The notes: a model not told the origin generated them from the letters alone. Shown: positions 2,847 through 53,941, counted from the first letter of the stretch. The stretch is 64,000 bases of DNA from Minisyncoccia bacterium (GCA_038228545.1 JBBRPE010000001.1:46924-110923), one strand, 5' to 3'. A program made the numbers and translations.

Positions 2847-2956
2847 GACAGACAGTGCGCACGTACAGACGTATTCAAATGCCACATTTTAATACAAGTT
2901 AAGACAAGATTAAAACAGGAAATTTAACTGCACGAGTCAAACCGAATATACAGCAC

Positions 2957-2994
2957 CATCATCATCTTGTGACGACCGTCACAAGATGATGATG
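2957..2994. repeat. long perfect palindrome, copy 1 (catcatcatcttgtgacg-ac-cgtcacaagatgatgatg)
   Basis: 18-nt arms with a 2-nt centre. Intergenic, upstream of pilB. Shares the core cttgtgacg-NN-cgtcacaag with the copies at ~8973 and ~9640. Confidence 0.8.
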
Positions 2995-3082
2995 CGGTAT
3001 GTAACCGTGTTTCAACTTATGGTGTTGTTACTATCCACGTTTCATCTGAATACAGATAATTCGTATCGTATACTGACGCCAC

Positions 3083-4327
3083 ATGAACTCCCTGCCGCAC
3101 GCTCGCCGTGGCAGTATGAACGCGATGCTTGTATCGCGTTTGGATGACGAGCTCTCTACTAATTCGTCCGTTTCAATCATAGAAGTGGTTGAGCTTCTTA
3201 TCGCGCAAGCTCACGCAACAGGTGCTTCCGATATTCACATTGACCCCTCTCGCGAATATTTACGCACCAGGCTTCGCATTGATGGCGTATTAGTAGATTA
3301 CCGTCAGCTTCCAAAAAACATACAGCACGAGATAATATCTCGCATTAAAATTCTTTCGGCGCTCCGTACTGATGAACACCAGATGCCTCAAGATGGCCGA
3401 TTTCGGTACGAGTTGCCTGACGGCGCTTTCATAGATATGCGTGTATCCATTGCACCAACATATTACGGAGAAAATGTGGTACTCCGTCTCCTCACCAATA
3501 ATCATGAAGAATTCACTTTAAGTCGTCTCGGCTTTAATCAAAGTGACATCCGTAGGATAGAGCAGGCGCTTAAGAAACAGAATGGAATGATACTTGCGAC
3601 TGGGCCCACAGGCTCAGGTAAAACAACAACGCTCTATACACTGCTTAAGAGTCTAAACACTCCTGATGTATCAATTATTACTATCGAAGACCCTATCGAA
3701 TACTCCGTTGATTCCATTGAGCAAATACAGGTTAACGCCCGTACCGGACTTACTTTTGCTACAGGTCTTCGTTCCATACTTCGACAGGATCCGGACATCA
3801 TCATGGTCGGTGAAATTCGCGACGCAGAAACCGCTAACATAGCCGTGAACACTGCCCTTACCGGCCACCTTCTTCTTTCGACTCTTCACACAAATGACGC
3901 TGCGACGACACTTCCGCGACTTACCGATATGGGTATCGATCCCTATCTCGTCGCTTCAACCATTACGATAGCCATCGGGCAGCGCCTTGTCCGCCGTATT
4001 TGTGAGTCCTGTGCGGAAACAATTTCCGTGACGCCCGCGCTTGCCGAATCGCTTGCGCATCTTGATATACATCCAGGAGAGCCATTCCGTCGCACTATCG
4101 GATGTGATGCCTGCGGTGGAACAGGCTACGTAGGTCGTCTTTCTATTAATGAAGTACTCGTGGCCGATGCGGACATCCAAGAAGCAATATTACGAAAAGC
4201 ATCTCCTGTCGAGCTTCGTCGTATTGCGGTTGCGAACGGTATGACCACGATGATTACTGACGCTCTCACGAAAGCCAGAGCTGGAGAGACCTCTCTTAAA
4301 GAGATGCTTCGTGTAATTCATGACTAA
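3083..4327 (+). CDS. pilB: type IV pilus assembly ATPase PilB/GspE
   Basis: Walker A GPTGSGKTT and a GspE-type CxxC tetracysteine near the C-terminus (CESC...CDAC). Confidence 0.9.
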   Translation: MNSLPHARRGSMNAMLVSRLDDELSTNSSVSIIEVVELLIAQAHATGASDIHIDPSREYLRTRLRIDGVLVDYRQLPKNIQHEIISRIKILSALRTDEHQMPQDGRFRYELPDGAFIDMRVSIAPTYYGENVVLRLLTNNHEEFTLSRLGFNQSDIRRIEQALKKQNGMILATGPTGSGKTTTLYTLLKSLNTPDVSIITIEDPIEYSVDSIEQIQVNARTGLTFATGLRSILRQDPDIIMVGEIRDAETANIAVNTALTGHLLLSTLHTNDAATTLPRLTDMGIDPYLVASTITIAIGQRLVRRICESCAETISVTPALAESLAHLDIHPGEPFRRTIGCDACGGTGYVGRLSINEVLVADADIQEAILRKASPVELRRIAVANGMTTMITDALTKARAGETSLKEMLRVIHD

Positions 4328-5435
4328 CACCCTAAGCGCTATTCTGTTACAACGTCTAAAAGACTCCGTTAGGTATATATATCGCCCACGGTTCAACCTT
4401 CGTGACCAAATCTTTCTCGCTAAACGGCTCTCATTCCTAACGAAAGCGGGAATACCTCTTATAGAAGCAGTCACCATGCTACAAGGCCAGACACGATCGA
4501 AAACAAAGGCGGCAATGTTAGGACGTATCGGTACGGACTTGGCAGGTGGCCACTATCTAGCAACCTGTTTGGTCCGTACACAAGACGTCTTTGGAGATTT
4601 CGGTATTAATCTTATTCGGGTCGGCGAATCAAGCGGTATTCTTACACAGAATCTGACCTATCTTGCGGATGAATTGGGTAAACGACACCTACTTCGCACC
4701 AAAGTGCTCAGTGCACTTCTCTACCCCGCGTTCATTACCGTAGCTACACTCGGGATAACATCTATGCTTACGGTCTACATCTTTCCGAAAATAATGCCGA
4801 TATTTGTATCACTCCACGTACCCCTGCCACTCACTACACGAATGCTTATTGGGGTATCGAATTACCTCCGCAGCTGGGGTCTGCTTACACTATTCGTTGT
4901 CATTATTCTAGGGATAGGATGTACCATTATTCGAAATCGTCTTGAAATCATCCGTTACGTAACGGATACAGCCCTTTTGCATCTACCCTTTGCCGCGCCA
5001 ATTGCGAGAAGTTATAACCTGGCAAATTTTTGTAGGACCCTTGGTCTTATGCTTAATTCTGGCGTCCCGGTAGCTTCTGCCGTGACCATAACCGCGGAAA
5101 CAACACCAAACCGAGTGTACCGAGTTCAGTATCATCGTCTTGCAGAACATGTTACGCGAGGCGAGCCCTTGGCACGTAGTCTGGCATCTGCTCCAGACCT
5201 ATTCCCCGACACACTAACGCACATGATAGCCGTTGGGGAAACCTCTGGCAGTCTTGCTCAATCACTTACGTACCTTGCCGAATTATATGAACTCGAAGTG
5301 GAAGAAGGTACAAAAAATCTCTCTTCATCAATAGAACCGATACTCATGCTCGTAATGGGATTGCTCGTAGGAATTATTGCTGTCTCCGTTATTACTCCTA
5401 TTTATGAAATTACTCAGCACCTTTCACCGCGATAA
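4320..5435 (+). CDS. pilC: type IV pilus inner-membrane platform protein PilC/GspF
   Basis: Duplicated GspF-type domains with 3-4 TM segments. Overlaps the pilB stop. Confidence 0.85.
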   Translation: MTNTLSAILLQRLKDSVRYIYRPRFNLRDQIFLAKRLSFLTKAGIPLIEAVTMLQGQTRSKTKAAMLGRIGTDLAGGHYLATCLVRTQDVFGDFGINLIRVGESSGILTQNLTYLADELGKRHLLRTKVLSALLYPAFITVATLGITSMLTVYIFPKIMPIFVSLHVPLPLTTRMLIGVSNYLRSWGLLTLFVVIILGIGCTIIRNRLEIIRYVTDTALLHLPFAAPIARSYNLANFCRTLGLMLNSGVPVASAVTITAETTPNRVYRVQYHRLAEHVTRGEPLARSLASAPDLFPDTLTHMIAVGETSGSLAQSLTYLAELYELEVEEGTKNLSSSIEPILMLVMGLLVGIIAVSVITPIYEITQHLSPR

Positions 5436-5439
5436 TGGT

Positions 5440-5916
5440 ATGGAAAGTCCTATAGATAGAATACATCGCGCCTTTACGCTTATTGAAACACTCGTAGTAC
5501 TTGGCCTTATCGGTGCGCTTATGACGCTCAGCCTACTACTTTCCATGGACGTGTATCGATCTACTGCATTTCGTTCGACACGAGCAGTGTTGGTGAGTAC
5601 GCTCACGACGGCGCGTTCCCGTTCGCTTGCAAACTTAAACCAGTCACCACATGGCGTATGTTCATTACCCCCAGATCTTATTCTTTTTGAGGGAGAAATG
5701 TACGACCCAGCTTCACCTATGAATGAACGTATACCCGGAAACCCTGCGGTACAGCTTACTTCGGTTAATGATTTCTTCGATTGCACAAAAGGAGTAGGGA
5801 TTATTTTTAGCCAGCTTGAAGCGACAACGAGCGAGAACGACATGATTGTCCTAACGGAACGTGGGCACAAAAATACAGATGTACGAGTGAACGAAGAGGG
5901 CACGATTCTTTGGTAG
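5440..5916 (+). CDS. pseudopilin with prepilin-type N-terminal cleavage/methylation domain
   Basis: RAFTLIETLVVLGLIGALM. Internal start chosen because the track ORF 5377.. overlaps pilC. Confidence 0.7.
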   Translation: MESPIDRIHRAFTLIETLVVLGLIGALMTLSLLLSMDVYRSTAFRSTRAVLVSTLTTARSRSLANLNQSPHGVCSLPPDLILFEGEMYDPASPMNERIPGNPAVQLTSVNDFFDCTKGVGIIFSQLEATTSENDMIVLTERGHKNTDVRVNEEGTILW

Positions 5917-5920
5917 TAGC

Positions 5921-7423
5921 ATGACGGCGTCTTTCCATACAAGACCAGTACCTAAAGGCAACAGTATCATCGAGCTTGTTATTGCTTTCGCTGTACTGAC
6001 ACTTACTCTTACTGCTGTCATCTCCGTATTCTTCGGAAACCAATCTGCTGCAGTAGACACAGAAACAGCAACTGAAGCACTGGCGCGTGCTCATGCGATG
6101 CTGGAATATGAACGCACATTTACCTCGAACGCGTATCTTTCCGCCAGTTCTACGAACAACCTAGTCACGCGTGGTGGACTCACCTACACAGAAACGATGT
6201 CGATTGAAGACATGACTCCGTGTGAAAAACAGGCTACCGCGAGTGTTGCCTGGAATACCAGTACACTCCGTCCACAAAAGACGGAAGTTACCACCTATCT
6301 TGTGGACATTCTCTCCACCCTTCTTCTTGGTGGCGATTGCGATACCGCTACAACAACTGGTTCATGGGCGTTGCCGAATCTGTTTGCCTCCGACACAGTT
6401 TCGCCTGCAAAGGCTACTGCCCTCGACGTGCTCGATGGCACTGTATACATGGCCGTTGACACGGCACCTTTTCTGAAAATAGCGTCAGGGGCGGGAGCGA
6501 CGCTTCACCAGAGTGGCGGACTTTTTATACAGTTTACAACCGGATTCAACCCTGGAAATAAGATAAATTCTATTGATGTATTCCGGTGGACGAATCCGGC
6601 ATCGGGAGACGTTAGGCGCTATATATTCGCAACCATGAACACAAGTGCGAACCAGCTCAAGATTATAGATGTTACGGTTCCGTCGGCCCCACTCATTACA
6701 GCGACGCTCTCCCTATCTTCATGTGTAACCGGCTCTTTCCCCCAAGGATGGTATGCAGTTGCCTACGGTAACCGTCTCTACCTTGTTACGCGCGAGACAG
6801 CCGGACCCGAATTGCATATTATCGATATTTCTACACCATCGTCCCCAACCGAGCTCTCTGTAGGAAGTGCCGGCTGTAGGGGTTTCCAATTGAACGATAC
6901 GGTAGAGGAGATGGTTGTGCGTGATCAACCGGTGAATGGTATTCGAAGAAGGTATGCCTATCTCGCAACTGATGAGTCTAATCGTGAACTCCGCGTGCTT
7001 GATGTTACTGATCCCTACAACGTCACGGAAGTACAAGATGTGGATTTACCAGGAATTCAAGACGGCTCAAGCTTGTATGTCATAGGTTCGAGATTATATT
7101 TCGGCCGGTTAAACGTTTCTACCGGACCCGAATTATACGTATTTGACGTGACGTCTCCTGTATCCGGACTTATCCAACTTGCAACACAGGAAATAGGTGC
7201 AGACGTACTTTCGATTCGTGTCGAAAACGGTTTAGCATTTCTCGGAACCCGAAAAAATAATAAGGAGCTCCAGGTATGGAACATTCAGGACCTTTCGCAC
7301 ATAACTAACGTATCCACGTTCCATGTCCCAAATTTAGTATCTCGAGGGGTCGATTATGAAGCCCCGTATCTATTCGTAGGGGCGCAGACAAATCCGACCC
7401 TGCAGGTGCTGTATACCCGCTAG
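5921..7423 (+). CDS. pilin-like protein fused to an LVIVD-repeat beta-propeller (candidate pilus-tip adhesin / minor pilin)
   Basis: N-terminal KGNSIIELVIAFAVLTL (prepilin-like, Glu at +5). At least five repeats of the form x-EL-hIhDhSxPxxP (ELHIIDISTPSSP, ELRVLDVTDPYNV, ELYVFDVTSPVSG, ELQVWNIQDLSHI, QLKIIDVTVPSAP) match the LVIVD repeat family. Confidence 0.65.
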   Translation: MTASFHTRPVPKGNSIIELVIAFAVLTLTLTAVISVFFGNQSAAVDTETATEALARAHAMLEYERTFTSNAYLSASSTNNLVTRGGLTYTETMSIEDMTPCEKQATASVAWNTSTLRPQKTEVTTYLVDILSTLLLGGDCDTATTTGSWALPNLFASDTVSPAKATALDVLDGTVYMAVDTAPFLKIASGAGATLHQSGGLFIQFTTGFNPGNKINSIDVFRWTNPASGDVRRYIFATMNTSANQLKIIDVTVPSAPLITATLSLSSCVTGSFPQGWYAVAYGNRLYLVTRETAGPELHIIDISTPSSPTELSVGSAGCRGFQLNDTVEEMVVRDQPVNGIRRRYAYLATDESNRELRVLDVTDPYNVTEVQDVDLPGIQDGSSLYVIGSRLYFGRLNVSTGPELYVFDVTSPVSGLIQLATQEIGADVLSIRVENGLAFLGTRKNNKELQVWNIQDLSHITNVSTFHVPNLVSRGVDYEAPYLFVGAQTNPTLQVLYTR

Positions 7424-7436
7424 CAAGAAATGGTAT

Positions 7437-7883
7437 ATGCCTAATCGCGCCTTTACTCTCATAGAAACGATTATCTATATAGCGCTTTTCGGCTTACTCA
7501 TGACCGGAGTACTAACGAGCGTCTATGGACTATTAGAGAATAGTGACCGGCTTTCCGTACACACTACGACTGAGGACGAGGGGACATTCGTTCTCCGCAA
7601 ATTAGAATGGATTTTCGAGAATACCGCGAGCGTACAGAGTCCTTCCTCGGGGTATGGTGAAAAGCTCTCGGTCACACTCACTGACGGCACACATGTAACC
7701 ATAACAAAAACGGCGACTACTATTGGACTAACGAGAGGTACCGACATGACTCCAAACGCTCTCACGAGCGCAAATGTCACCGTACAGTCCCTGGGTTTCT
7801 ATATTTTGCCGGGAGGAGGTATTGAAGCATCTACAACTGTGGATGGAAGAATGTTTACAACTCGTTCGTATCTTCAAAAATAA
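7437..7883 (+). CDS. pseudopilin (prepilin-type N-terminus)
   Basis: MPNRAFTLIETIIYIALFGLLM. Confidence 0.75.
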   Translation: MPNRAFTLIETIIYIALFGLLMTGVLTSVYGLLENSDRLSVHTTTEDEGTFVLRKLEWIFENTASVQSPSSGYGEKLSVTLTDGTHVTITKTATTIGLTRGTDMTPNALTSANVTVQSLGFYILPGGGIEASTTVDGRMFTTRSYLQK

Positions 7884-7885
7884 AT

Positions 7886-8296
7886 ATGTTTAAGAATTCG
7901 AAACCTCGTGGATTCATAGCACTTATGTCAGCACTTATTATTGCTACGGTTCTTTTACTTATAGCAACTGGTGGAAGCCTTTCCGGTTTCTATGGGCGTA
8001 TGGATTCACTTGATTTCGAAGCAAAGGAACGGAGCGCTTGGCTTGCACGTGCGTGCGTTGAGCATACTCTTCAAGCGCTTGCACATGATCCGTCTTACAC
8101 AGCACTCGCGACAACCTCGCTTACAGAGGCCGATTCCTGTTACACCGGTCTTATTAAACGAGACGGCACTCCACCTAACGAGCTGTATTCTTTTAAAACT
8201 CGTGCCACTGTCATGAGTGCGTACACAATCTATACAGTTTCCGTACGAGGTTCTGATCTATCCGTGCAGTCTTTTACTGAGTTACCCACATTCTGA
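7886..8296 (+). CDS. minor pilin-like protein (PilX/GspK-like N-terminal helix lacking Glu at +5)
   Basis: RGFIALMSALIIATVLLLIA hydrophobic N-terminus. Sits within the pilin gene cluster. Confidence 0.45.
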   Translation: MFKNSKPRGFIALMSALIIATVLLLIATGGSLSGFYGRMDSLDFEAKERSAWLARACVEHTLQALAHDPSYTALATTSLTEADSCYTGLIKRDGTPPNELYSFKTRATVMSAYTIYTVSVRGSDLSVQSFTELPTF

Positions 8297-8362
8297 TCGT
8301 TGAACATTACGAGGCCAGTGCTACATTCCTTATAGTTCGATTACAAGCTCGTACTACACACT

Positions 8363-8836
8363 ATGAAACCTGCTCGCCAAGGTTATGTCTCTCGCATTCC
8401 TCGTGGATTCACTCTTATCGAAATTCTCGTTGTTATAGGTATCATCGCAATTCTTGCGGCCATTGTTATCATCGCCATTAATCCGGCGCGTCAGTTTAAG
8501 CAAGCACATGACAGTCAGCGTGTTTCAAATGTAAACGCAATTCTCAACGGTATAGGTCAAAATATTGCCGACCACAAAGGAGTCTTTACGTGCGCAGTAG
8601 CACTTCCGACAACTGCAACCGTTATTAGTAGCACCGGACTTGATGTACGCTCGTGTCTCGTCCCCACTTACCTTCCAGAGCTTCCGGTTGATCCAACCAC
8701 AGGCACTGCCTGTGTAGATGCGGCATGCACCGCAGGTTACACGACAGGCTACACGGTCCTCCAGGACTCAGTTACAGGACGTGTGACCGTGAGCGCCGTT
8801 GGTGAAGTAACACCAGCAATAAGCGTCACGCGTTAA
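8363..8836 (+). CDS. type IVa major pilin
   Basis: PRGFTLIEILVVIGIIAILAAIV, a canonical class III signal with G^FTLIE. The C-terminal region carries several Cys (likely disulfide-bonded D-region). Confidence 0.8.
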   Translation: MKPARQGYVSRIPRGFTLIEILVVIGIIAILAAIVIIAINPARQFKQAHDSQRVSNVNAILNGIGQNIADHKGVFTCAVALPTTATVISSTGLDVRSCLVPTYLPELPVDPTTGTACVDAACTAGYTTGYTVLQDSVTGRVTVSAVGEVTPAISVTR

Positions 8837-8852
8837 CGTAGGATTTTGCACG

Positions 8853-8893
8853 CATATGGCCCGCCTCTGGCGGGCCATATGTATTTCTATATT
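8853..8893 (+). terminator. intrinsic terminator after the major pilin gene
   Basis: catatggcccgcc-tct-ggcgggccatatg hairpin followed by tatttctatatt. Confidence 0.6.
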
Positions 8894-8972
8894 CCGGTCT
8901 TAGTCTCTGTCTATTTCTCCCTCCCCCTCTGATTCTGATTCTTTTAAGGTTTAAGTTTTCTTTTTCGTAATT

Positions 8973-9018
8973 CCACTATCCCCATCTTGTGACGGTCGTC
9001 ACAAGATGGGGATAGTGG
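8973..9018. repeat. long perfect palindrome, copy 2 (ccactatccccatcttgtgacg-gt-cgtcacaagatggggatagtgg)
   Basis: 22-nt arms. Lies immediately upstream of the regulator gene at 9036. Confidence 0.8.
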
Positions 9019-9035
9019 AGCGGTAAGATGACCGC

Positions 9036-9620
9036 ATGGGAAAGCTCGAAGCACAGGCCAAGCACGAACGGCGTCTCGGAGAGTTCGAACGCGCCATACT
9101 CGGCGTTACTGCTGCAGCCGGAATAGTCGCTGTAGGCGTTATCGCACCAAAACTTCTTTCATTAGTTCGGTACATACCTCAAAGTAACTCAAAATTTCGC
9201 TATCGAACGAAATCAACACTCACCAAGCTTGCGACACGAGGACTAATTACTTTCAGTAGCGAAGACGGGAAACGATACGCACGTTTAACTGAAAAGGGTG
9301 AGAAGCACATGGAGTATGAGACGCAGAAGCTCGTACTTACGCAGAATGCACGCAAACGCTGGGATAAGCGATGGCGGATAGTTACATTTGATATCCCAGA
9401 AGCTCGCAGACGAACTCGCACCCAGCTCCGTTACACCATGCAGGAAGCAGGATTCTATCGACTTCAGAATAGTGTATGGGTACTTCCGTATGACTGCGAA
9501 GACTTGATTACCCTTCTTAAGGCGGACCTTAAGGTCGGCAAAGACGTTCTTTACATTATTGCGGAGCATATCGAACACGATGCCGAGCTCCGCTCTCACT
9601 TCAACCTCCCAGCTGCCTAG
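9036..9620 (+). CDS. membrane-anchored winged-helix regulator with C-terminal Cas2/VapD-like (PaaX_C-like) domain
   Basis: TM helix ILGVTAAAGIVAVGVIAP. wHTH LTKLATRGLITFSSEDGKRYARLTEKG. C-terminal WRIVTFDIPEARRRTRTQLRYTMQEAGFYRLQNSVWVLPY resembles the Cas2 core fold. No CRISPR array in the window. Confidence 0.5.
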   Translation: MGKLEAQAKHERRLGEFERAILGVTAAAGIVAVGVIAPKLLSLVRYIPQSNSKFRYRTKSTLTKLATRGLITFSSEDGKRYARLTEKGEKHMEYETQKLVLTQNARKRWDKRWRIVTFDIPEARRRTRTQLRYTMQEAGFYRLQNSVWVLPYDCEDLITLLKADLKVGKDVLYIIAEHIEHDAELRSHFNLPAA

Positions 9621-9639
9621 GCTTACTTGCCCGAAGGAC

Positions 9640-9683
9640 CACTATCATCATCTTGTGACGACCGTCACAAGATGATGATAGTG
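9640..9683. repeat. long perfect palindrome, copy 3 (cactatcatcatcttgtgacg-ac-cgtcacaagatgatgatagtg)
   Basis: 21-nt arms. Lies immediately downstream of the regulator gene. Confidence 0.8.
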
Positions 9684-17154: not shown

Positions 17155-17200
17155 AGGCCGGGCCAGTTCCTACTCGTAGGAACTGGCCCGGCCGCTTTTC
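17155..17200. terminator. bidirectional intrinsic terminator downstream of uppP
   Basis: ggccgggccagttcctac-tcg-taggaactggcccggcc with T-rich flanks. Confidence 0.6.
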
Positions 17201-23414: not shown

Positions 23415-24210
23415 TTACTAAGGCCAGGCCTTGGTATACTGCTCGCGTGTACCAAGGCCTGGCCTTAGTAATAACCCGTTGCTCGCATGGGAATGAGGAT
23501 AATCCAGTTCGGAGTAAATGAATGGTATCACTGCTACAGCCGTGGTGTGGATAAGCGCATGATTTTTCAAGAAGCCGCAGACTATCAGCGCTTCCAAATG
23601 CTTCTCTATGTCTGCAACAGTACTATTCCGATTCATCTAAGTGAGATAGCGAAACGTCCCCAAGGCCTGGCCTTGGGAGAGGTCATCAGCGAAATACGAG
23701 GTGAGCAGTTCGTGGATATTGGTGCCTATGCACTTATGCCGAATCACCATCATCTCTTGCTGCGTGAACGAGTCGAGGGAGGCACAACAGCTTTCATGCA
23801 GAAATTGGGTACAGCCTATACGATGTACTTCAACAAGAAGTATGAGCGCACCGGATCTCTCTTTTCCGGAAAGTTCAAGGCGAAGCATGTGGCCACAGAT
23901 GAATATTTCGCACGTATCGTGAATTATATTCATGGGAACCCCGCAGAACTACATGAGCCGGGATGGAAGAATGGATTGATACGAGACGAGAGGAGGCTTA
24001 AACAGTTTCTTTCTTCATATCGTTTCTCAAGTTTGCCTGACCATGATACTGAAGATGAAAGAGTGGAAGGTCATCTAATAAACAAGAACTCTGTTCTCGA
24101 ACTTATCGGATACACTCCAACATTTGAAACACTTATGGAAGATGCATATACGTTTCAACGCGACGTGGACTTCGATTGACCGTATACCAAGGCCTGGCCT
24201 TGGTATACGG
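23415..24210 (+). mobile_element. RAYT (REP-associated tyrosine transposase) gene flanked by REP-like palindromes
   Basis: A compound hairpin at 23415-23472 (two inverted copies of ttactaaggccaggccttggta), an internal ccaaggcctggccttgg at ~23660, and a perfect 31-nt palindrome ccgtataccaaggcctggccttggtatacgg at 24180-24210. Confidence 0.7.
23487..24179 (+). CDS. IS200/IS605-like HuH Y1 transposase of the RAYT subgroup
   Basis: HuH motif LMPNHHHLLL and the Tyr motif NYIHGNPAE. Confidence 0.8.
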   Translation: MGMRIIQFGVNEWYHCYSRGVDKRMIFQEAADYQRFQMLLYVCNSTIPIHLSEIAKRPQGLALGEVISEIRGEQFVDIGAYALMPNHHHLLLRERVEGGTTAFMQKLGTAYTMYFNKKYERTGSLFSGKFKAKHVATDEYFARIVNYIHGNPAELHEPGWKNGLIRDERRLKQFLSSYRFSSLPDHDTEDERVEGHLINKNSVLELIGYTPTFETLMEDAYTFQRDVDFD

Positions 24211-24241
24211 TCTTTGGTATACGTTGAATAGCTACGAGGAG

Positions 24242-25312
24242 TTAGTAGGCGTCGGAACGGGTCTGGGTGTCACCTCGGAAGACGCGATGTAGGTAGAAGT
24301 TATATACAAGGACTATCGGAAATAGGGGCCCGAGTCCAAAGAGCATAAACTCAAGTGTCTTTCTGCTCGACGCGGCGTCGTAAATAGTGAGCGAAGGCGG
24401 AATGATGTACGGAAAGACACCGACCAGCATACCGAGCATAGCGAGCACGAATATGCCCAGGCAGAGATTGTGAAGTGCAGGGCCCGTGCTTTTTTTAATG
24501 ACGAGAACAATCAGCCAGAGTGAGAGCACTCCCATGCATGCCGTTATGCCAAAAAGCAGATAATTGCTCGGGTACATGGTCCAACGCTCAAAGAAAAGAT
24601 AGCTCTTACTCGGAAGTAGGAGCGTCGCGCCAAGTAATGCGCCACCGGTCACAGCTCCTGCGATAAGAATACGCATGAAGGTGTTTGGTGACGCTTCTTT
24701 CCCTGCTTTCTTAATCAGATATGCGTACCCAACGAAGACGTAACTCATCAGCACACCAATAGTAATAAGGAATGTGAGTGGCGTAATGAAATCGAATGCA
24801 GTACCGGAAAATTCCCCAGTGGTAACGGAAATACCCGAGAGCAGTCCGCCGACAGCGAGCCCCTGCCCCACACCAGCCAAGAGCGAACCGAATCCAAATA
24901 AGCGACTCCACAACTTCTTGTTCGTGCCGACAGCATGGAATTCAAATGACACTGCTCGCAGAATAAGTCCGAAGAGCATCGTCATGACCGGAATATAAAG
25001 TGCAGAAAGAATAATCCCGTACGCAGTCGGGAATGCGCCAAAAAGCATACCGCCTGCTATCACGAGCCAGGTTTCGTTTGCGTCCCATATCGGACCGAGC
25101 GTGTGCATCATCGCCGCACGTTGCTCTTCTTTCTGCGGAAGTAAGGAAAGTATGCCGAGACCGAGGTCCGCACCATCAAGCAAGATGTAGAGTGCAACCG
25201 CAAGACCTATTGCGCCGAACCACGCGAGTGCAAGCATCGGATCGGTAAGGTACTGCATCATACGCTTGGAAGTGTGCTGGTAAGGTCGGGACCTTTCTTC
25301 ACTATTTTCCAC
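24242..25312 (-). CDS. cydB: cytochrome bd ubiquinol oxidase subunit II
   Basis: CydB-like ~9 TM protein immediately downstream of cydA. Confidence 0.85.
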   Translation of the reverse strand: MENSEERSRPYQHTSKRMMQYLTDPMLALAWFGAIGLAVALYILLDGADLGLGILSLLPQKEEQRAAMMHTLGPIWDANETWLVIAGGMLFGAFPTAYGIILSALYIPVMTMLFGLILRAVSFEFHAVGTNKKLWSRLFGFGSLLAGVGQGLAVGGLLSGISVTTGEFSGTAFDFITPLTFLITIGVLMSYVFVGYAYLIKKAGKEASPNTFMRILIAGAVTGGALLGATLLLPSKSYLFFERWTMYPSNYLLFGITACMGVLSLWLIVLVIKKSTGPALHNLCLGIFVLAMLGMLVGVFPYIIPPSLTIYDAASSRKTLEFMLFGLGPLFPIVLVYNFYLHRVFRGDTQTRSDAY

Positions 25313-26661
25313 GTGAAGTAAACGAAGAGGAAACCAAATACCAGATAGATGGACGTAAAGATGCCTGTCGTTATCGCGACCGCGCTCGCATTCAGTCCGC
25401 TCGAGAGGCCGTGCTCGGTACGCAGCAAGTGATACACCACCCAGGGCTGACGGCCGATTTCACGCACCATCCATCCAGCTTCGGTTGCGATGAATCCAAG
25501 CGGTGTACCAAAGATAAAAAGCCACCAGAACAGCTTGTCTCCTCCCTGACTGGCGCGGAGCGGCACACCCGGCAGTGCTTCACCTGTTTTTAAGTAGCCA
25601 CGCTTCCAGTACCACACACCAAGAATCATAAGAAGGAACATGCAAACTCCGCACGCAACCATGATACGGAAGGAGTAGAAGACGAGAACGTCGTCGATAA
25701 GCGTCGGACGGTCGTTGGTAGGAAAATCATTCAGTCCCGGCACAGTACCGGTTGAAGAGTGTGTGGTAAGCAGAGAAAGAACGACCGGTAGTTTAATTTC
25801 GAACGCGTTCCCGTTATTTTGTGCGTTCGGCCAGGCGACGAGCGCCCAGTCGGCTCCCGTGCCCGGAAGGTTTGTATCCCAGTGCAGTTCTGTTGCCGCG
25901 AGCTTTGCCGGCTGATACTTCGCAATCGTCGTGCCCGAGAGGTCGCCGAGCCCCATCTGGAGTGGGGTCACGATAATAGCGAGCGCAAGACAATACTTGA
26001 ATGTCGTAAGAAAGAATTCACGCGTAGATTCCGGAACCGTGCGACGCATAAGTACAAGAGCGCAGATGCCAAGCATCATGAAGAGTGTTGCCTCTATACA
26101 TGCGACCCACATATGCAGGAACGACACGAGGGTATCGGGATTAAAGATAGCGACGAGGTAATCGGTCACGACGAGCTTTCCGTTCTGAACTTCAACGCCT
26201 ATAGGCACTTGCATCCAGGAGTTTGCCGCCATAATCCAGAACGCTGAAAGCGTCGCGCCCACGAATATCATCGCGTTCGAGAAGAAGTGCATCCACTTAT
26301 TCACTTTATTCCAACCGAAGACAAAGATGCCGAGGAAGGCTGCTTCGAGTGCAAACGCGACCGTGGACTCGAATCCGAGAATATTACCGAAGAAGTCCCC
26401 TGCCGCCGTCGAGAATTTTGCCCAATTCGTGCCGAATTCAAATTCGAGTGGAAAGCCGGTGGCTGTCCCAATGGCGAACGTCAGTATGAAAATCTTGGTC
26501 CAGAACTTGAGCTGACGATAATACGTTTCTTTCTTGGTCTTGAGCCACATCGCTTCCATCGTGAGCATGTAGAGCGAAAGGCCAATAGACATAAGCGGCC
26601 ACAATATATGGAACGCGGCAGTATCGCCGAACTGTAAGCGAGAGATAGTAAGTACATCCAT
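25258..26661 (-). CDS. cydA: cytochrome bd ubiquinol oxidase subunit I
   Basis: CydA family; Q-loop region and heme ligands. Confidence 0.9.
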   Translation of the reverse strand: MDVLTISRLQFGDTAAFHILWPLMSIGLSLYMLTMEAMWLKTKKETYYRQLKFWTKIFILTFAIGTATGFPLEFEFGTNWAKFSTAAGDFFGNILGFESTVAFALEAAFLGIFVFGWNKVNKWMHFFSNAMIFVGATLSAFWIMAANSWMQVPIGVEVQNGKLVVTDYLVAIFNPDTLVSFLHMWVACIEATLFMMLGICALVLMRRTVPESTREFFLTTFKYCLALAIIVTPLQMGLGDLSGTTIAKYQPAKLAATELHWDTNLPGTGADWALVAWPNAQNNGNAFEIKLPVVLSLLTTHSSTGTVPGLNDFPTNDRPTLIDDVLVFYSFRIMVACGVCMFLLMILGVWYWKRGYLKTGEALPGVPLRASQGGDKLFWWLFIFGTPLGFIATEAGWMVREIGRQPWVVYHLLRTEHGLSSGLNASAVAITTGIFTSIYLVFGFLFVYFTWKIVKKGPDLTSTLPSV

Positions 26662-27855: not shown

Positions 27856-27874
27856 TCCCCAGCTCGGTAAAGAA

Positions 27875-27908
27875 AAAGACCCTCGCTTGCGAGGGTCTTT
27901 TTCTTTAC
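27875..27908. terminator. bidirectional intrinsic terminator
   Basis: aaagaccctcgc-ttg-cgagggtcttt followed by ttctttac. Confidence 0.6.
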
Positions 27909-27916
27909 CTGTTTGC

Positions 27917-53852: not shown

Positions 53853-53881
53853 GGGCAGGGCCCTCCTTCCCCGCTACCATA

Positions 53882-53918
53882 GCACAAAACCCCGCGCCAG
53901 AGGCGCGGGGTTTTGTGC
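53882..53918. terminator. bidirectional intrinsic terminator downstream of rpoC
   Basis: gcacaaaaccccgcgcc-aga-ggcgcggggttttgtgc. Confidence 0.65.
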
Positions 53919-53941
53919 TTTCTTCGAAAGCGGAGCGAGAG

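Follow-up and report, generated by a model that had tools for sequence, protein, structure and literature searches.

The closest described counterpart of the system considered here is the PaaX regulator of Escherichia coli, which combines a winged helix with a Cas2-like middle domain (PaaX_M), binds the inverted repeat TGATTC-N27-GAATCA and represses its own promoter (Px) by steric hindrance (PMC9493321). Partial parallels are offered by Cas2 itself, a ferredoxin-like domain with an N-terminal (Y/F)DI motif, and by the pairs formed by repetitive extragenic palindromic (REP or REPIN) sequences and REP-associated tyrosine transposases (RAYT), in which palindromic repeats belonging to a gene stand on either side of it and a few additional copies may occur at other places. 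A stretch of 64,000 nucleotides from a Minisyncoccia bacterium (GCA_038228545.1, JBBRPE010000001.1:46924-110923), hereafter termed the window, carries at 9036-9620 on the plus strand a gene for a PaaX-like protein that is enclosed by two long perfect palindromes, with a third copy lying upstream of the pilus gene pilB. Comparison with homologous loci, taken together with the analogy to PaaX, suggests, with a probability of about 0.68, that the three palindromes are copies of the putative cognate binding site of this protein, in a PaaX-type arrangement that would include autoregulation. To our knowledge, transcription factors are very scarce in the Patescibacteria, or candidate phyla radiation (CPR), and next to nothing has been established about how their genes are regulated.

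The palindrome immediately upstream of the gene (copy 2, termed U; 8972-9019) spans 48 bp, TCCACTATCCCCATCTTGTGACG-GT-CGTCACAAGATGGGGATAGTGGA, with 23-nt arms around a central GT, and can be divided into the outer boxes CTATCCCCA and TGGGGATAG, the inner arms TCTTGTGA and the centre CGGTCG. The one downstream (copy 3, termed D; 9640-9683) spans 44 bp, CACTATCATCATCTTGTGACG-AC-CGTCACAAGATGATGATAGTG, with 21-nt arms and a central dinucleotide (AC) inverted relative to that of U (GT), and the solo copy (copy 1; 2957-2994) spans 38 bp, CATCATCATCTTGTGACG-AC-CGTCACAAGATGATGATG, with 18-nt arms; no strand is assigned to any of the three. U ends 16 nt before the ATG at 9036, and D starts 19 nt past the stop codon. 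All three share the core ATCTTGTGACG-NN-CGTCACAAGAT, whose 18-bp form TTGTGACGNNCGTCACAA occurs three times in the window with up to two mismatches, against an expectation of 0.02, and 0 of 100 shuffled sequences reach this number. Isolated half-sites are absent from the rest of the 64 kb, and a looser scan of the same 64 kb at the family level recovered no further or degenerate copies beyond the three; the copy counts for the source genome cover this window. Each arm of U departs from that of D at two positions (CC versus AT), the opposite arm compensating both changes, and the solo copy differs from D at one position per arm (position 18, C:G versus T:A), likewise compensated, after which its symmetry stops. 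Folded as single-stranded DNA, the copies reach -17.7, -26.3 and -21.0 kcal/mol (z = -5.7 to -11.5). None of them is followed by a T-tract on its 3' side, and a terminator scan calls none of the three terminator-like. The first-pass annotation, which had been made from the DNA alone, is thus borne out in its account of three perfect palindromes with a shared core, of compensated outer-arm differences (three compensated double changes), of the absence of T-tracts and of two copies placed directly 5' and 3' of the gene for a winged helix-turn-helix (wHTH)/Cas2-like protein, with the amendment that U is one base longer on each side than it had reported.

The encoded protein of 194 residues consists of a hydrophobic segment (residues 20-44), a winged helix (approximately 50-85) and a Cas2-like domain (approximately 107-185). 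In Pfam it matches PaaX_M (PF20803; E = 4.4e-22, 78.4 bits against a gathering cut-off of 24) and, more weakly, CRISPR_Cas2 (1.1e-5). Its AlphaFold2 model (predicted local distance difference test score, pLDDT, 78) is composed of a long helix at the N-terminus, a hydrophobic stretch of poor prediction quality, a helix with a beta-wing, and a beta-alpha-beta-beta-alpha-beta domain. A Foldseek search with this model retrieved E. coli PaaX (PDB: 8a39; E = 6.5e-7) as the top match, followed by 3kfw and 3l09 (Rv0674 and a PaaX-like protein of Jannaschia), and the structural matches to Cas2, PadR, MarR and AspA span only parts of the protein. By both its Pfam match and its fold the protein is a member of the PaaX-like superfamily, with the architecture wHTH plus PaaX_M/Cas2-like domain. 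It falls short of strict PaaX membership as defined by the NCBIfam equivalog TIGR02277 (43 bits against a cut-off of 264.55), and no match to PaaX_C, the C-terminal ligand-binding domain, was found, the protein ending at residue 194. It thus differs from E. coli PaaX in lacking the phenylacetyl-CoA-binding C-terminal domain, in possessing a conserved N-terminal hydrophobic segment and in having no paa genes nearby. The hydrophobic segment (Kyte-Doolittle hydropathy 2.18 over residues 20-38, with a family mean of 2.09) is a plausible membrane anchor of ambiguous topology.

The resemblance to Cas2 has left its mark on the databases. The protein passes the NCBIfam cas2 model TIGR01573 (32.1 bits against a cut-off of 24.5), with only about 45 N-terminal residues of the model matched, the PADLOC Cas2 models match it at 1e-7 to 1e-8, and the Cas2 catalytic-type motif FDI(P) is invariant across the family. 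Some NCBI records accordingly carry the name "CRISPR-associated endonuclease Cas2", because family members pass the TIGR01573 cut-off. No cas1 was found among the neighbours of the gene in the window or in the neighbourhoods of its relatives, and Rfam CRISPR-DR models gave no match in the window. Unlike Cas2, the domain is here fused to a winged helix as in PaaX, and the flanking repeats lie approximately 650 bp apart and enclose the gene itself. Given the lack of a CRISPR context and the PaaX-like architecture, the name is probably a systematic misannotation.

Homologues of the protein are numerous, with 509 recovered in one search (approximately 193 residues, 45-57% identity), those bearing a taxonomic name belonging to Patescibacteria or Paceibacterota, and with 412 clusters at 50% identity recovered in an exhaustive profile search (E <= 1e-30). 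A sample of 80 metagenomic loci and several more was examined, of which 78 non-redundant loci were used for counting elements; the upstream element was found by viewing the 130 nt 5' of each gene, and the downstream one by k-mer comparison followed by a symmetry scan. A quasi-palindrome of about 44 bp with a recognised centre is present upstream (U) in 63 of the 78 loci, downstream (D) in 74, and on both sides in 59. The D elements lie 0-40 nt past the stop codon, with centres 21-61 nt past it, and the spacing from U to D ranges from 613 to 696 bp (median 647). The concentration of elements in these positions is striking, as 126 are found in the 12 kb of U and D zones against 18 in the remaining 352 kb, and several of the 18 outlying ones bracket second paralogues in two loci (L043 and L049). 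Across the family the element is built of outer boxes, (c)TATCC(A/C)(C/A)A ... T(G/T)(G/T)GGATA(g), of variable inner arms, and of a centre that reads CGGTCG, CGACCG or CTATAG. Copy 2 of the window is in register with the upstream element of the homologues, CACTATCC[A/C]CA[A/T]CTTG..., such that copies 2 and 3 represent U and D. The part that the window copies share, TTGTGACG, corresponds to the lineage-variable inner arm, and the family-conserved part comprises the outer box and the centre. Throughout the Patescibacteria the gene stands as a unit of its own between its two elements. Its neighbours vary from locus to locus, including gyrA, MazE-Fic and SocA, dnaG-rpoD, or an AI-2E transporter and a NUDIX protein, and this variability indicates that it is the gene itself, and not its surroundings, with which the elements are associated. 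We found no description in the searchable literature of such a Patescibacteria-wide arrangement of site, gene and site around a PaaX-like, Cas2-domain protein; the same literature yielded nothing relevant on this family, or on leaderless promoters, in Patescibacteria.

The upstream element stands in a fixed relation to the predicted promoter. A hexamer of the form TAnnnT precedes the start codon by 5-9 nt (mode 6) in 69 of 75 homologue loci, and a Shine-Dalgarno (SD)-like motif is present in only 5 of 75, as would be expected of genes with leaderless mRNA. In the window, the predicted -10 hexamer TAAGAT, read from the sequence (9024-9029, plus strand), lies 6 nt before the ATG of the gene, suggesting that the transcript would be leaderless or nearly so (with a predicted start). 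U ends 4 nt before this hexamer and covers approximately positions -64 to -17 relative to the start codon. In the homologues the centre of U lies either 18 or approximately 40 nt before the ATG, and in the subfamily with the former spacing the right arm of the element contains the -10 box and overlaps the ATG. No -10 signature was found in the D elements, and only 9 of 74 loci have a T-run after D; hence D is neither a copy of the promoter nor a classical terminator.

The arrangement also recurs around a distant paralogue. A scan of all genomes, with one genome per species, for the core CTTGTGACGNNCGTCACAAG returned 21 sites, mostly palindromes of chance length (9-12-nt arms) in unrelated phyla, and the only informative match was a Saccharibacteria metagenome-assembled genome (MAG) with two copies that have long arms. 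In this MAG (locus L002) a PaaX_M/Cas2-like gene, whose product is 26% identical to the window protein, is bracketed by palindromes (6349-6386 and 7043-7076) with the same GTGACG-NN-CGTCAC core, one of the two long-armed copies lying directly after the gene and a third copy, with a slightly different inner arm, directly before it. Among viral contigs, the core matched only short operator-like sequences, and no relatives of the protein family turned up.

Several further observations concern the distribution of these elements. In L043 (626-1270) and L049 (426-1067) a second paralogue, approximately 40% identical to the first and about 4 kb from it, is bracketed by an element class of its own (TGTATCAAAT...CCTATAGG...), and each paralogue in these loci appears to have its own site. 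In L028 (5660-5800) three elements of different classes (AATATTCTTATC..., ACTATCCACA... and AATCTCCCTATC...) stand head to tail, approximately 46 bp apart, in one intergenic region that no family gene adjoins, and it is possible that they form a shared target of several paralogous proteins. In L056 (3467-4085) a tRNA-Lys gene is enclosed by D and an identical third copy, which includes approximately 20 nt of flank. The Saccharibacteria MAG CAYIVQ01 seems to hold several related perfect palindromes, among them a 52-bp one with the centre CGATCG located 25 bp from a GTGACG-NN-CGTCAC element between convergent genes (L015, 3836-3953), and another, ACTATCTTATCCGACGG|CCGTCGGATAAGATAGT, just before an open reading frame (ORF; L002, 1068-1101).

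To compare the elements, each was split into two half-sites, giving four per locus. Half-site identity averages 0.67 between the arms of one element and 0.70 between U and D of the same locus, against 0.43 between loci. Such a genome-specific sequence common to all four half-sites is what a common trans-acting reader, or alternatively concerted evolution, would predict. Box type goes with the sequence of the protein's predicted recognition helix and wing, KAQLRYQYRT... occurring with TATCAAA, KARFNYQAKT... with TATCCACA, EKYNLKYRAK... with ATATTCTTA, and KRFKDQTRST... with ACACACAC. Partial Mantel tests separate the contributions of the two domains: the outer box correlates with the wHTH given the Cas2-like domain (0.35) and the inner arm with the Cas2-like domain given the wHTH (0.28), neither value being reached in any of 1000 permutations, whereas the inner arm shows no significant correlation with the wHTH given the Cas2-like domain (0.02); the loci are phylogenetically related, and tests of this type are liberal under such autocorrelation, a point against the reading as a cognate site for which the contrast between the domains is an internal control.

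Given the above observations, the following model can be proposed. A dimer of the protein would cover one element, with the two winged helices reading, in much the manner of E. coli PaaX, a pair of outer boxes (CTATCC[C/A][C/T]CA here) spaced approximately 30 bp from centre to centre, and with the Cas2-like dimer lying over the inner arms and centre (TTGTGACG-NN-CGTCACAA). The geometry of the outer boxes, 8 bp each and 22 bp apart, is comparable to that of TGATTC-N27-GAATCA, both systems having inverted half-sites, putative ones here, about three helical turns apart, and a site that overlaps the regulator's own promoter, here a predicted one. Binding at U would occlude the -35 region and spacer of the leaderless promoter, resulting in negative autoregulation as by PaaX at Px. 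D would be a second conserved site approximately 650 bp away, which probably cooperates with U, by looping or by serving as a roadblock. The solo copy would be a lineage-specific extra site that may give the regulator an input into the pilus operon, this being the weakest step of the model, and the perfect self-complementarity of the window copies would be a lineage-specific overlay. The proposed system departs from E. coli PaaX in having a second site after the stop codon in almost every family member and, between the half-sites, a region that is palindromic in its own right and varies in concert with the Cas2-like domain. Of the earlier proposal that the inverted-repeat core is the operator of the adjacent regulator, the association has thus stood, in that across the family the elements (U and D) go with the gene, one of them lies at its promoter and they co-vary with the protein; the part of the element that is conserved differs from the proposed core, and the extension to pilus control is weak (see below).

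Beside the relatedness of the loci, several points weigh against this model. The charges flanking the hydrophobic segment are ambiguous across the family, and should the segment span the membrane as a helix whose N-terminus is inside the cell, the DNA-binding domains would end up on the outside. The solo copy is situated approximately 75 nt upstream of the predicted pilB -10 box and is not conserved in three relatives. Nor does protein binding alone account for the combination of perfect symmetry in every window copy with sequence differences between the copies. In the family at large, 10 to 20 of 22 arm positions match (median 15, 67% on average), and the window U and D are symmetric at 21, the maximum possible with an asymmetric centre; near-perfect copies are also found in L002, L029 (U) and L046 (D). 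The perfect symmetry of the window copies is a feature specific to this lineage. A known mutational route, the correction of quasipalindromes by intra-strand template switching, perfects inverted repeats and mimics compensatory change (PMC7202029). As described in E. coli and yeast, this process would convert imperfect inverted repeats into perfect ones such as the window copies, and it is offered here, as a possible process, only to account for the copies of this lineage being perfect when those of the family are not. It would explain the symmetry at least as well as selection on a cruciform.

The genes surrounding the palindromes have the identities that had been assigned to them in the first-pass annotation: a VanY gene (1962-2846) is followed by the genes for PilB (3083-4327) and PilC (4320-5435), by a gene for an LVIVD protein and then pilin genes extending up to 8836, and, beyond the regulator, by a HAD hydrolase gene (from 9841). 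A classical intrinsic terminator with a GC-rich stem and a T-rich tail (8853-8881, plus strand), the only strong terminator-like site found between 2800 and 9900 in a scan with sigma-70 and terminator consensus sequences that was uninformative for the elements themselves, ends the pilus operon before U, which suggests that the regulator gene (9036-9620) is a transcription unit separate from that operon.

The solo copy lies in the spacer between vanY and pilB, 88 nt before the pilB ATG. Its sequence is almost that of D, with the similarity confined to 41 nt and with unrelated flanks, and its left outer box is nearly intact (CACCATC versus CACTATC) while the right one is degraded. The predicted pilB -10 box, TATACT, read from the sequence (3069-3074, plus strand), is 8 nt before the ATG at 3083, and the distance of approximately 75 nt from the end of the solo copy places the latter clear of the core promoter. 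Three relatives have PilB proteins 68-70% identical to that of the window, the same order of vanY, pilB, pilC and pilin genes, and RNase Y after the last pilin; their vanY-pilB spacer is 42-46 nt long (L122-L124, 8955-9000) as against 236 nt in the window (2847-3082). In none of the three is there an element upstream of pilB, or a family gene within 9 kb. As these relatives are syntenic with the window in this region, the absence of the element makes the pilus link a lineage-specific one. The extra 190 nt or so of the window spacer shows no similarity elsewhere in the window except for the 41-nt element. One metagenomic locus (L101) has a pilus operon followed by a family gene, as in the window, and ends before the region upstream of pilB. 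Taken together, these comparisons show the solo copy to be a lineage-specific insertion, and the link to pilus control is weak. Thus, the third copy does lie in the vanY-pilB spacer, as the description of it as part of the pilus-operon promoter region implied, and outside the predicted core promoter; control of pilus and competence genes by the regulator, which would depend on this single copy, is not supported beyond this lineage, and the comparison of pilB upstream regions, which had been suggested as a check, weakens it. In the window (3069-3085), as in two of these relatives (L122 and L124, approximately 8985-9003; TATGCT, 6 nt, ATG), pilB is preceded at 6-8 nt from its ATG by a -10-like hexamer and lacks an SD-like motif, and leaderless transcription may be common in these genomes.

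Other explanations of the palindromes have to be weighed against the model of a cognate binding site. They might be structured RNA or DNA hairpins in which pairing itself is selected and which shield the regulator transcript from the pilus operon and the genes downstream, whether as factor-independent terminators or insulators, as sites of RNase III-type processing or as cruciforms. This accords with the perfect arms and three compensated double changes of the window copies, with their strong predicted hairpins (-18 to -26 kcal/mol, z down to -11.5), and with a location of D in what would be the 3' untranslated region and of U behind the pilus operon. The absence of T-tracts and of terminator-like calls, the rarity of T-runs after D and the presence of a classical terminator (8853-8881) that already ends the pilus operon nevertheless run counter to termination, U is outside the gene's own mRNA since it is upstream of the -10 box, and Rfam gave no match on the whole window. 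The claim that selection acts on the hairpin or cruciform is not sustained across the family, compensated changes being confined to the window: a median of 15 of 22 positions are matched, the symmetry within an element (0.67) is not above the similarity of U to D (0.70), and, of the positions that distinguish the left arms of U and D, the right arm agrees with its own element at 223, with the other element at 226 and with neither at 161, which indicates no family-wide compensation within an element. We therefore regard hairpin function as a decidedly unlikely basis for the palindromes. A similarly poor prospect attaches to the gene and its two palindromes being a mobile or selfish cassette, with ends recognised by the Cas2-like protein (as REP sequences are by RAYT) or serving as recombination sites, and with solo copies as its footprints or derivatives. 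The different neighbourhoods of the gene in different genomes, the element-sized (41-nt) insertion in an enlarged spacer, the solo or extra copies in L028, L031, L051, L056 and L058, and the invariant FDI(P) motif would all be in keeping with it. CPR genomes, however, have low synteny in general. A locus carries either a single gene or a pair of paralogues that diverged anciently and have elements of different classes, with no identical multi-copy cassettes and no empty-site evidence seen. No relatives were found in viral contigs, no transposase or recombinase adjoins the gene, and the register of U relative to the -10 box and start codon is fixed, which would be expected of an operator. A related and still unlikely proposal is that site, gene and site constitute a self-contained module in which a membrane-anchored Cas2-derived protein acts on the enclosing palindromes, tethering the locus to the membrane or nicking or copying the elements; solo copies and lineage-specific perfect palindromes could then be products of this activity, and the module would represent an unrecognised Cas2-related selfish or chromosome-organising system spread across the Patescibacteria. 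A site-specific inversion switch was also considered and rejected, because any inversion of the bracketed segment would carry the -10 box along with the gene, and no recombinase occurs in the vicinity.

The remaining alternatives assign the palindromes to other systems, and all are disfavoured by their copy number and position, by the non-conserved inner arm or by the clade-dependent variation of the box, just as the lack of a T-tract disfavours terminators. The second hypothesis of the first-pass annotation, a generic REP-like family, has in its favour the perfect palindromes with a shared core and variable arms, and a RAYT/IS200-like gene at 23487-24179 that might have mobilised them. It was not supported: the window has just three copies in 64 kb and no degenerate ones, two of them at family-conserved positions, the RAYT-like gene is flanked by a different palindrome (24178-24212), and the scan of all genomes found the core with extended arms in only one other genome, the Saccharibacteria MAG, where it again accompanies a PaaX_M gene. 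The studied system further differs from REP/REPIN-RAYT pairs in that its protein is PaaX_M/Cas2-like and not an HUH/Y1 transposase, and in the fixed position of the upstream copy at the promoter; a REP origin is very improbable. Slighter still is the chance that the core is a site for a different regulator of the CRP/FNR family, even though T-TGTGA-CGNNCG-TCACA-A matches the CRP half-sites and spacing (TGTGA-N6-TCACA) exactly in all three copies, short versions of the motif occur in phage contigs, and CRP-type regulators control type IV pili in other bacteria. At the homologous position, other family loci do not retain the inner arm that provides the match, and a CRP site of 22 bp is only half the length of the element. 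A Pfam scan of 30 window ORFs, about half of those in the window, returned no cyclic-nucleotide-binding or Crp-type HTH domain, and the three relatives lack such a site upstream of pilB. Finally, at most one mismatch separates the consensus outer box of the family, (C/T)TATCCACA, from the DnaA box (TTATCCACA), raising the notion that the elements are origin-related or titrate DnaA. DnaA boxes, which occur as TTATNCACA 9-mers in clusters at an origin, hardly vary, in contrast to the outer boxes, which vary with the protein clade (TATCAAA, ATATTCTTA, ACACACAC, CACCACCA, AGCCACA). The window boxes CTATCCCCA and CTATCATCA are 2-3 mismatches from the DnaA box, CTATCCACA-like 9-mers elsewhere in the window are unclustered, and there is neither a dnaA gene nearby nor an inflection of GC skew in the region, which leaves this notion scarcely credible.

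If the palindromes are indeed the cognate sites of the PaaX-like protein, a widespread CPR protein family, often mislabelled "Cas2", would be matched with a cis element that the sequence by itself suffices to identify, in a conserved promoter architecture with a -10 box 6 nt before the start, an implied leaderless transcript and a site on both sides of the gene. As each genome displays its own version of the site twice, regulons could be predicted genome by genome. The participation of the Cas2-like domain in DNA recognition would be a testable model. The comparisons also allow a recurring, probable annotation error to be corrected and the pilus link of the window to be seen as a lineage-specific addition and not a conserved circuit.

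A few other features of the window deserve mention. The RAYT-like ORF (23487-24179) encodes 230 residues with a weak match to IS200/Y1 and REP-associated tyrosine transposases (Pfam 4.4e-9; NCBIfam 34.8 bits against a cut-off of 80), and is directly followed by the 35-bp perfect palindrome GACCGTATACCAAGGCC-T-GGCCTTGGTATACGGTC (24178-24212), with a related shorter one inside the ORF (23659-23677); the region 23487-24212 may constitute a RAYT/REP-type pair unrelated to the family studied here. Further long perfect palindromes of unrelated sequence, with 18-21-nt arms and 2-3-nt loops, are located at 17156-17193, 27866-27909 and 53881-53919, two of which have A-rich and T-rich flanks resembling those of bidirectional terminators. 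The region 24242-26661 encodes subunit I of a cytochrome bd oxidase (Pfam 5e-146) with a probable subunit II adjoining, in what is apparently a Patescibacteria genome.

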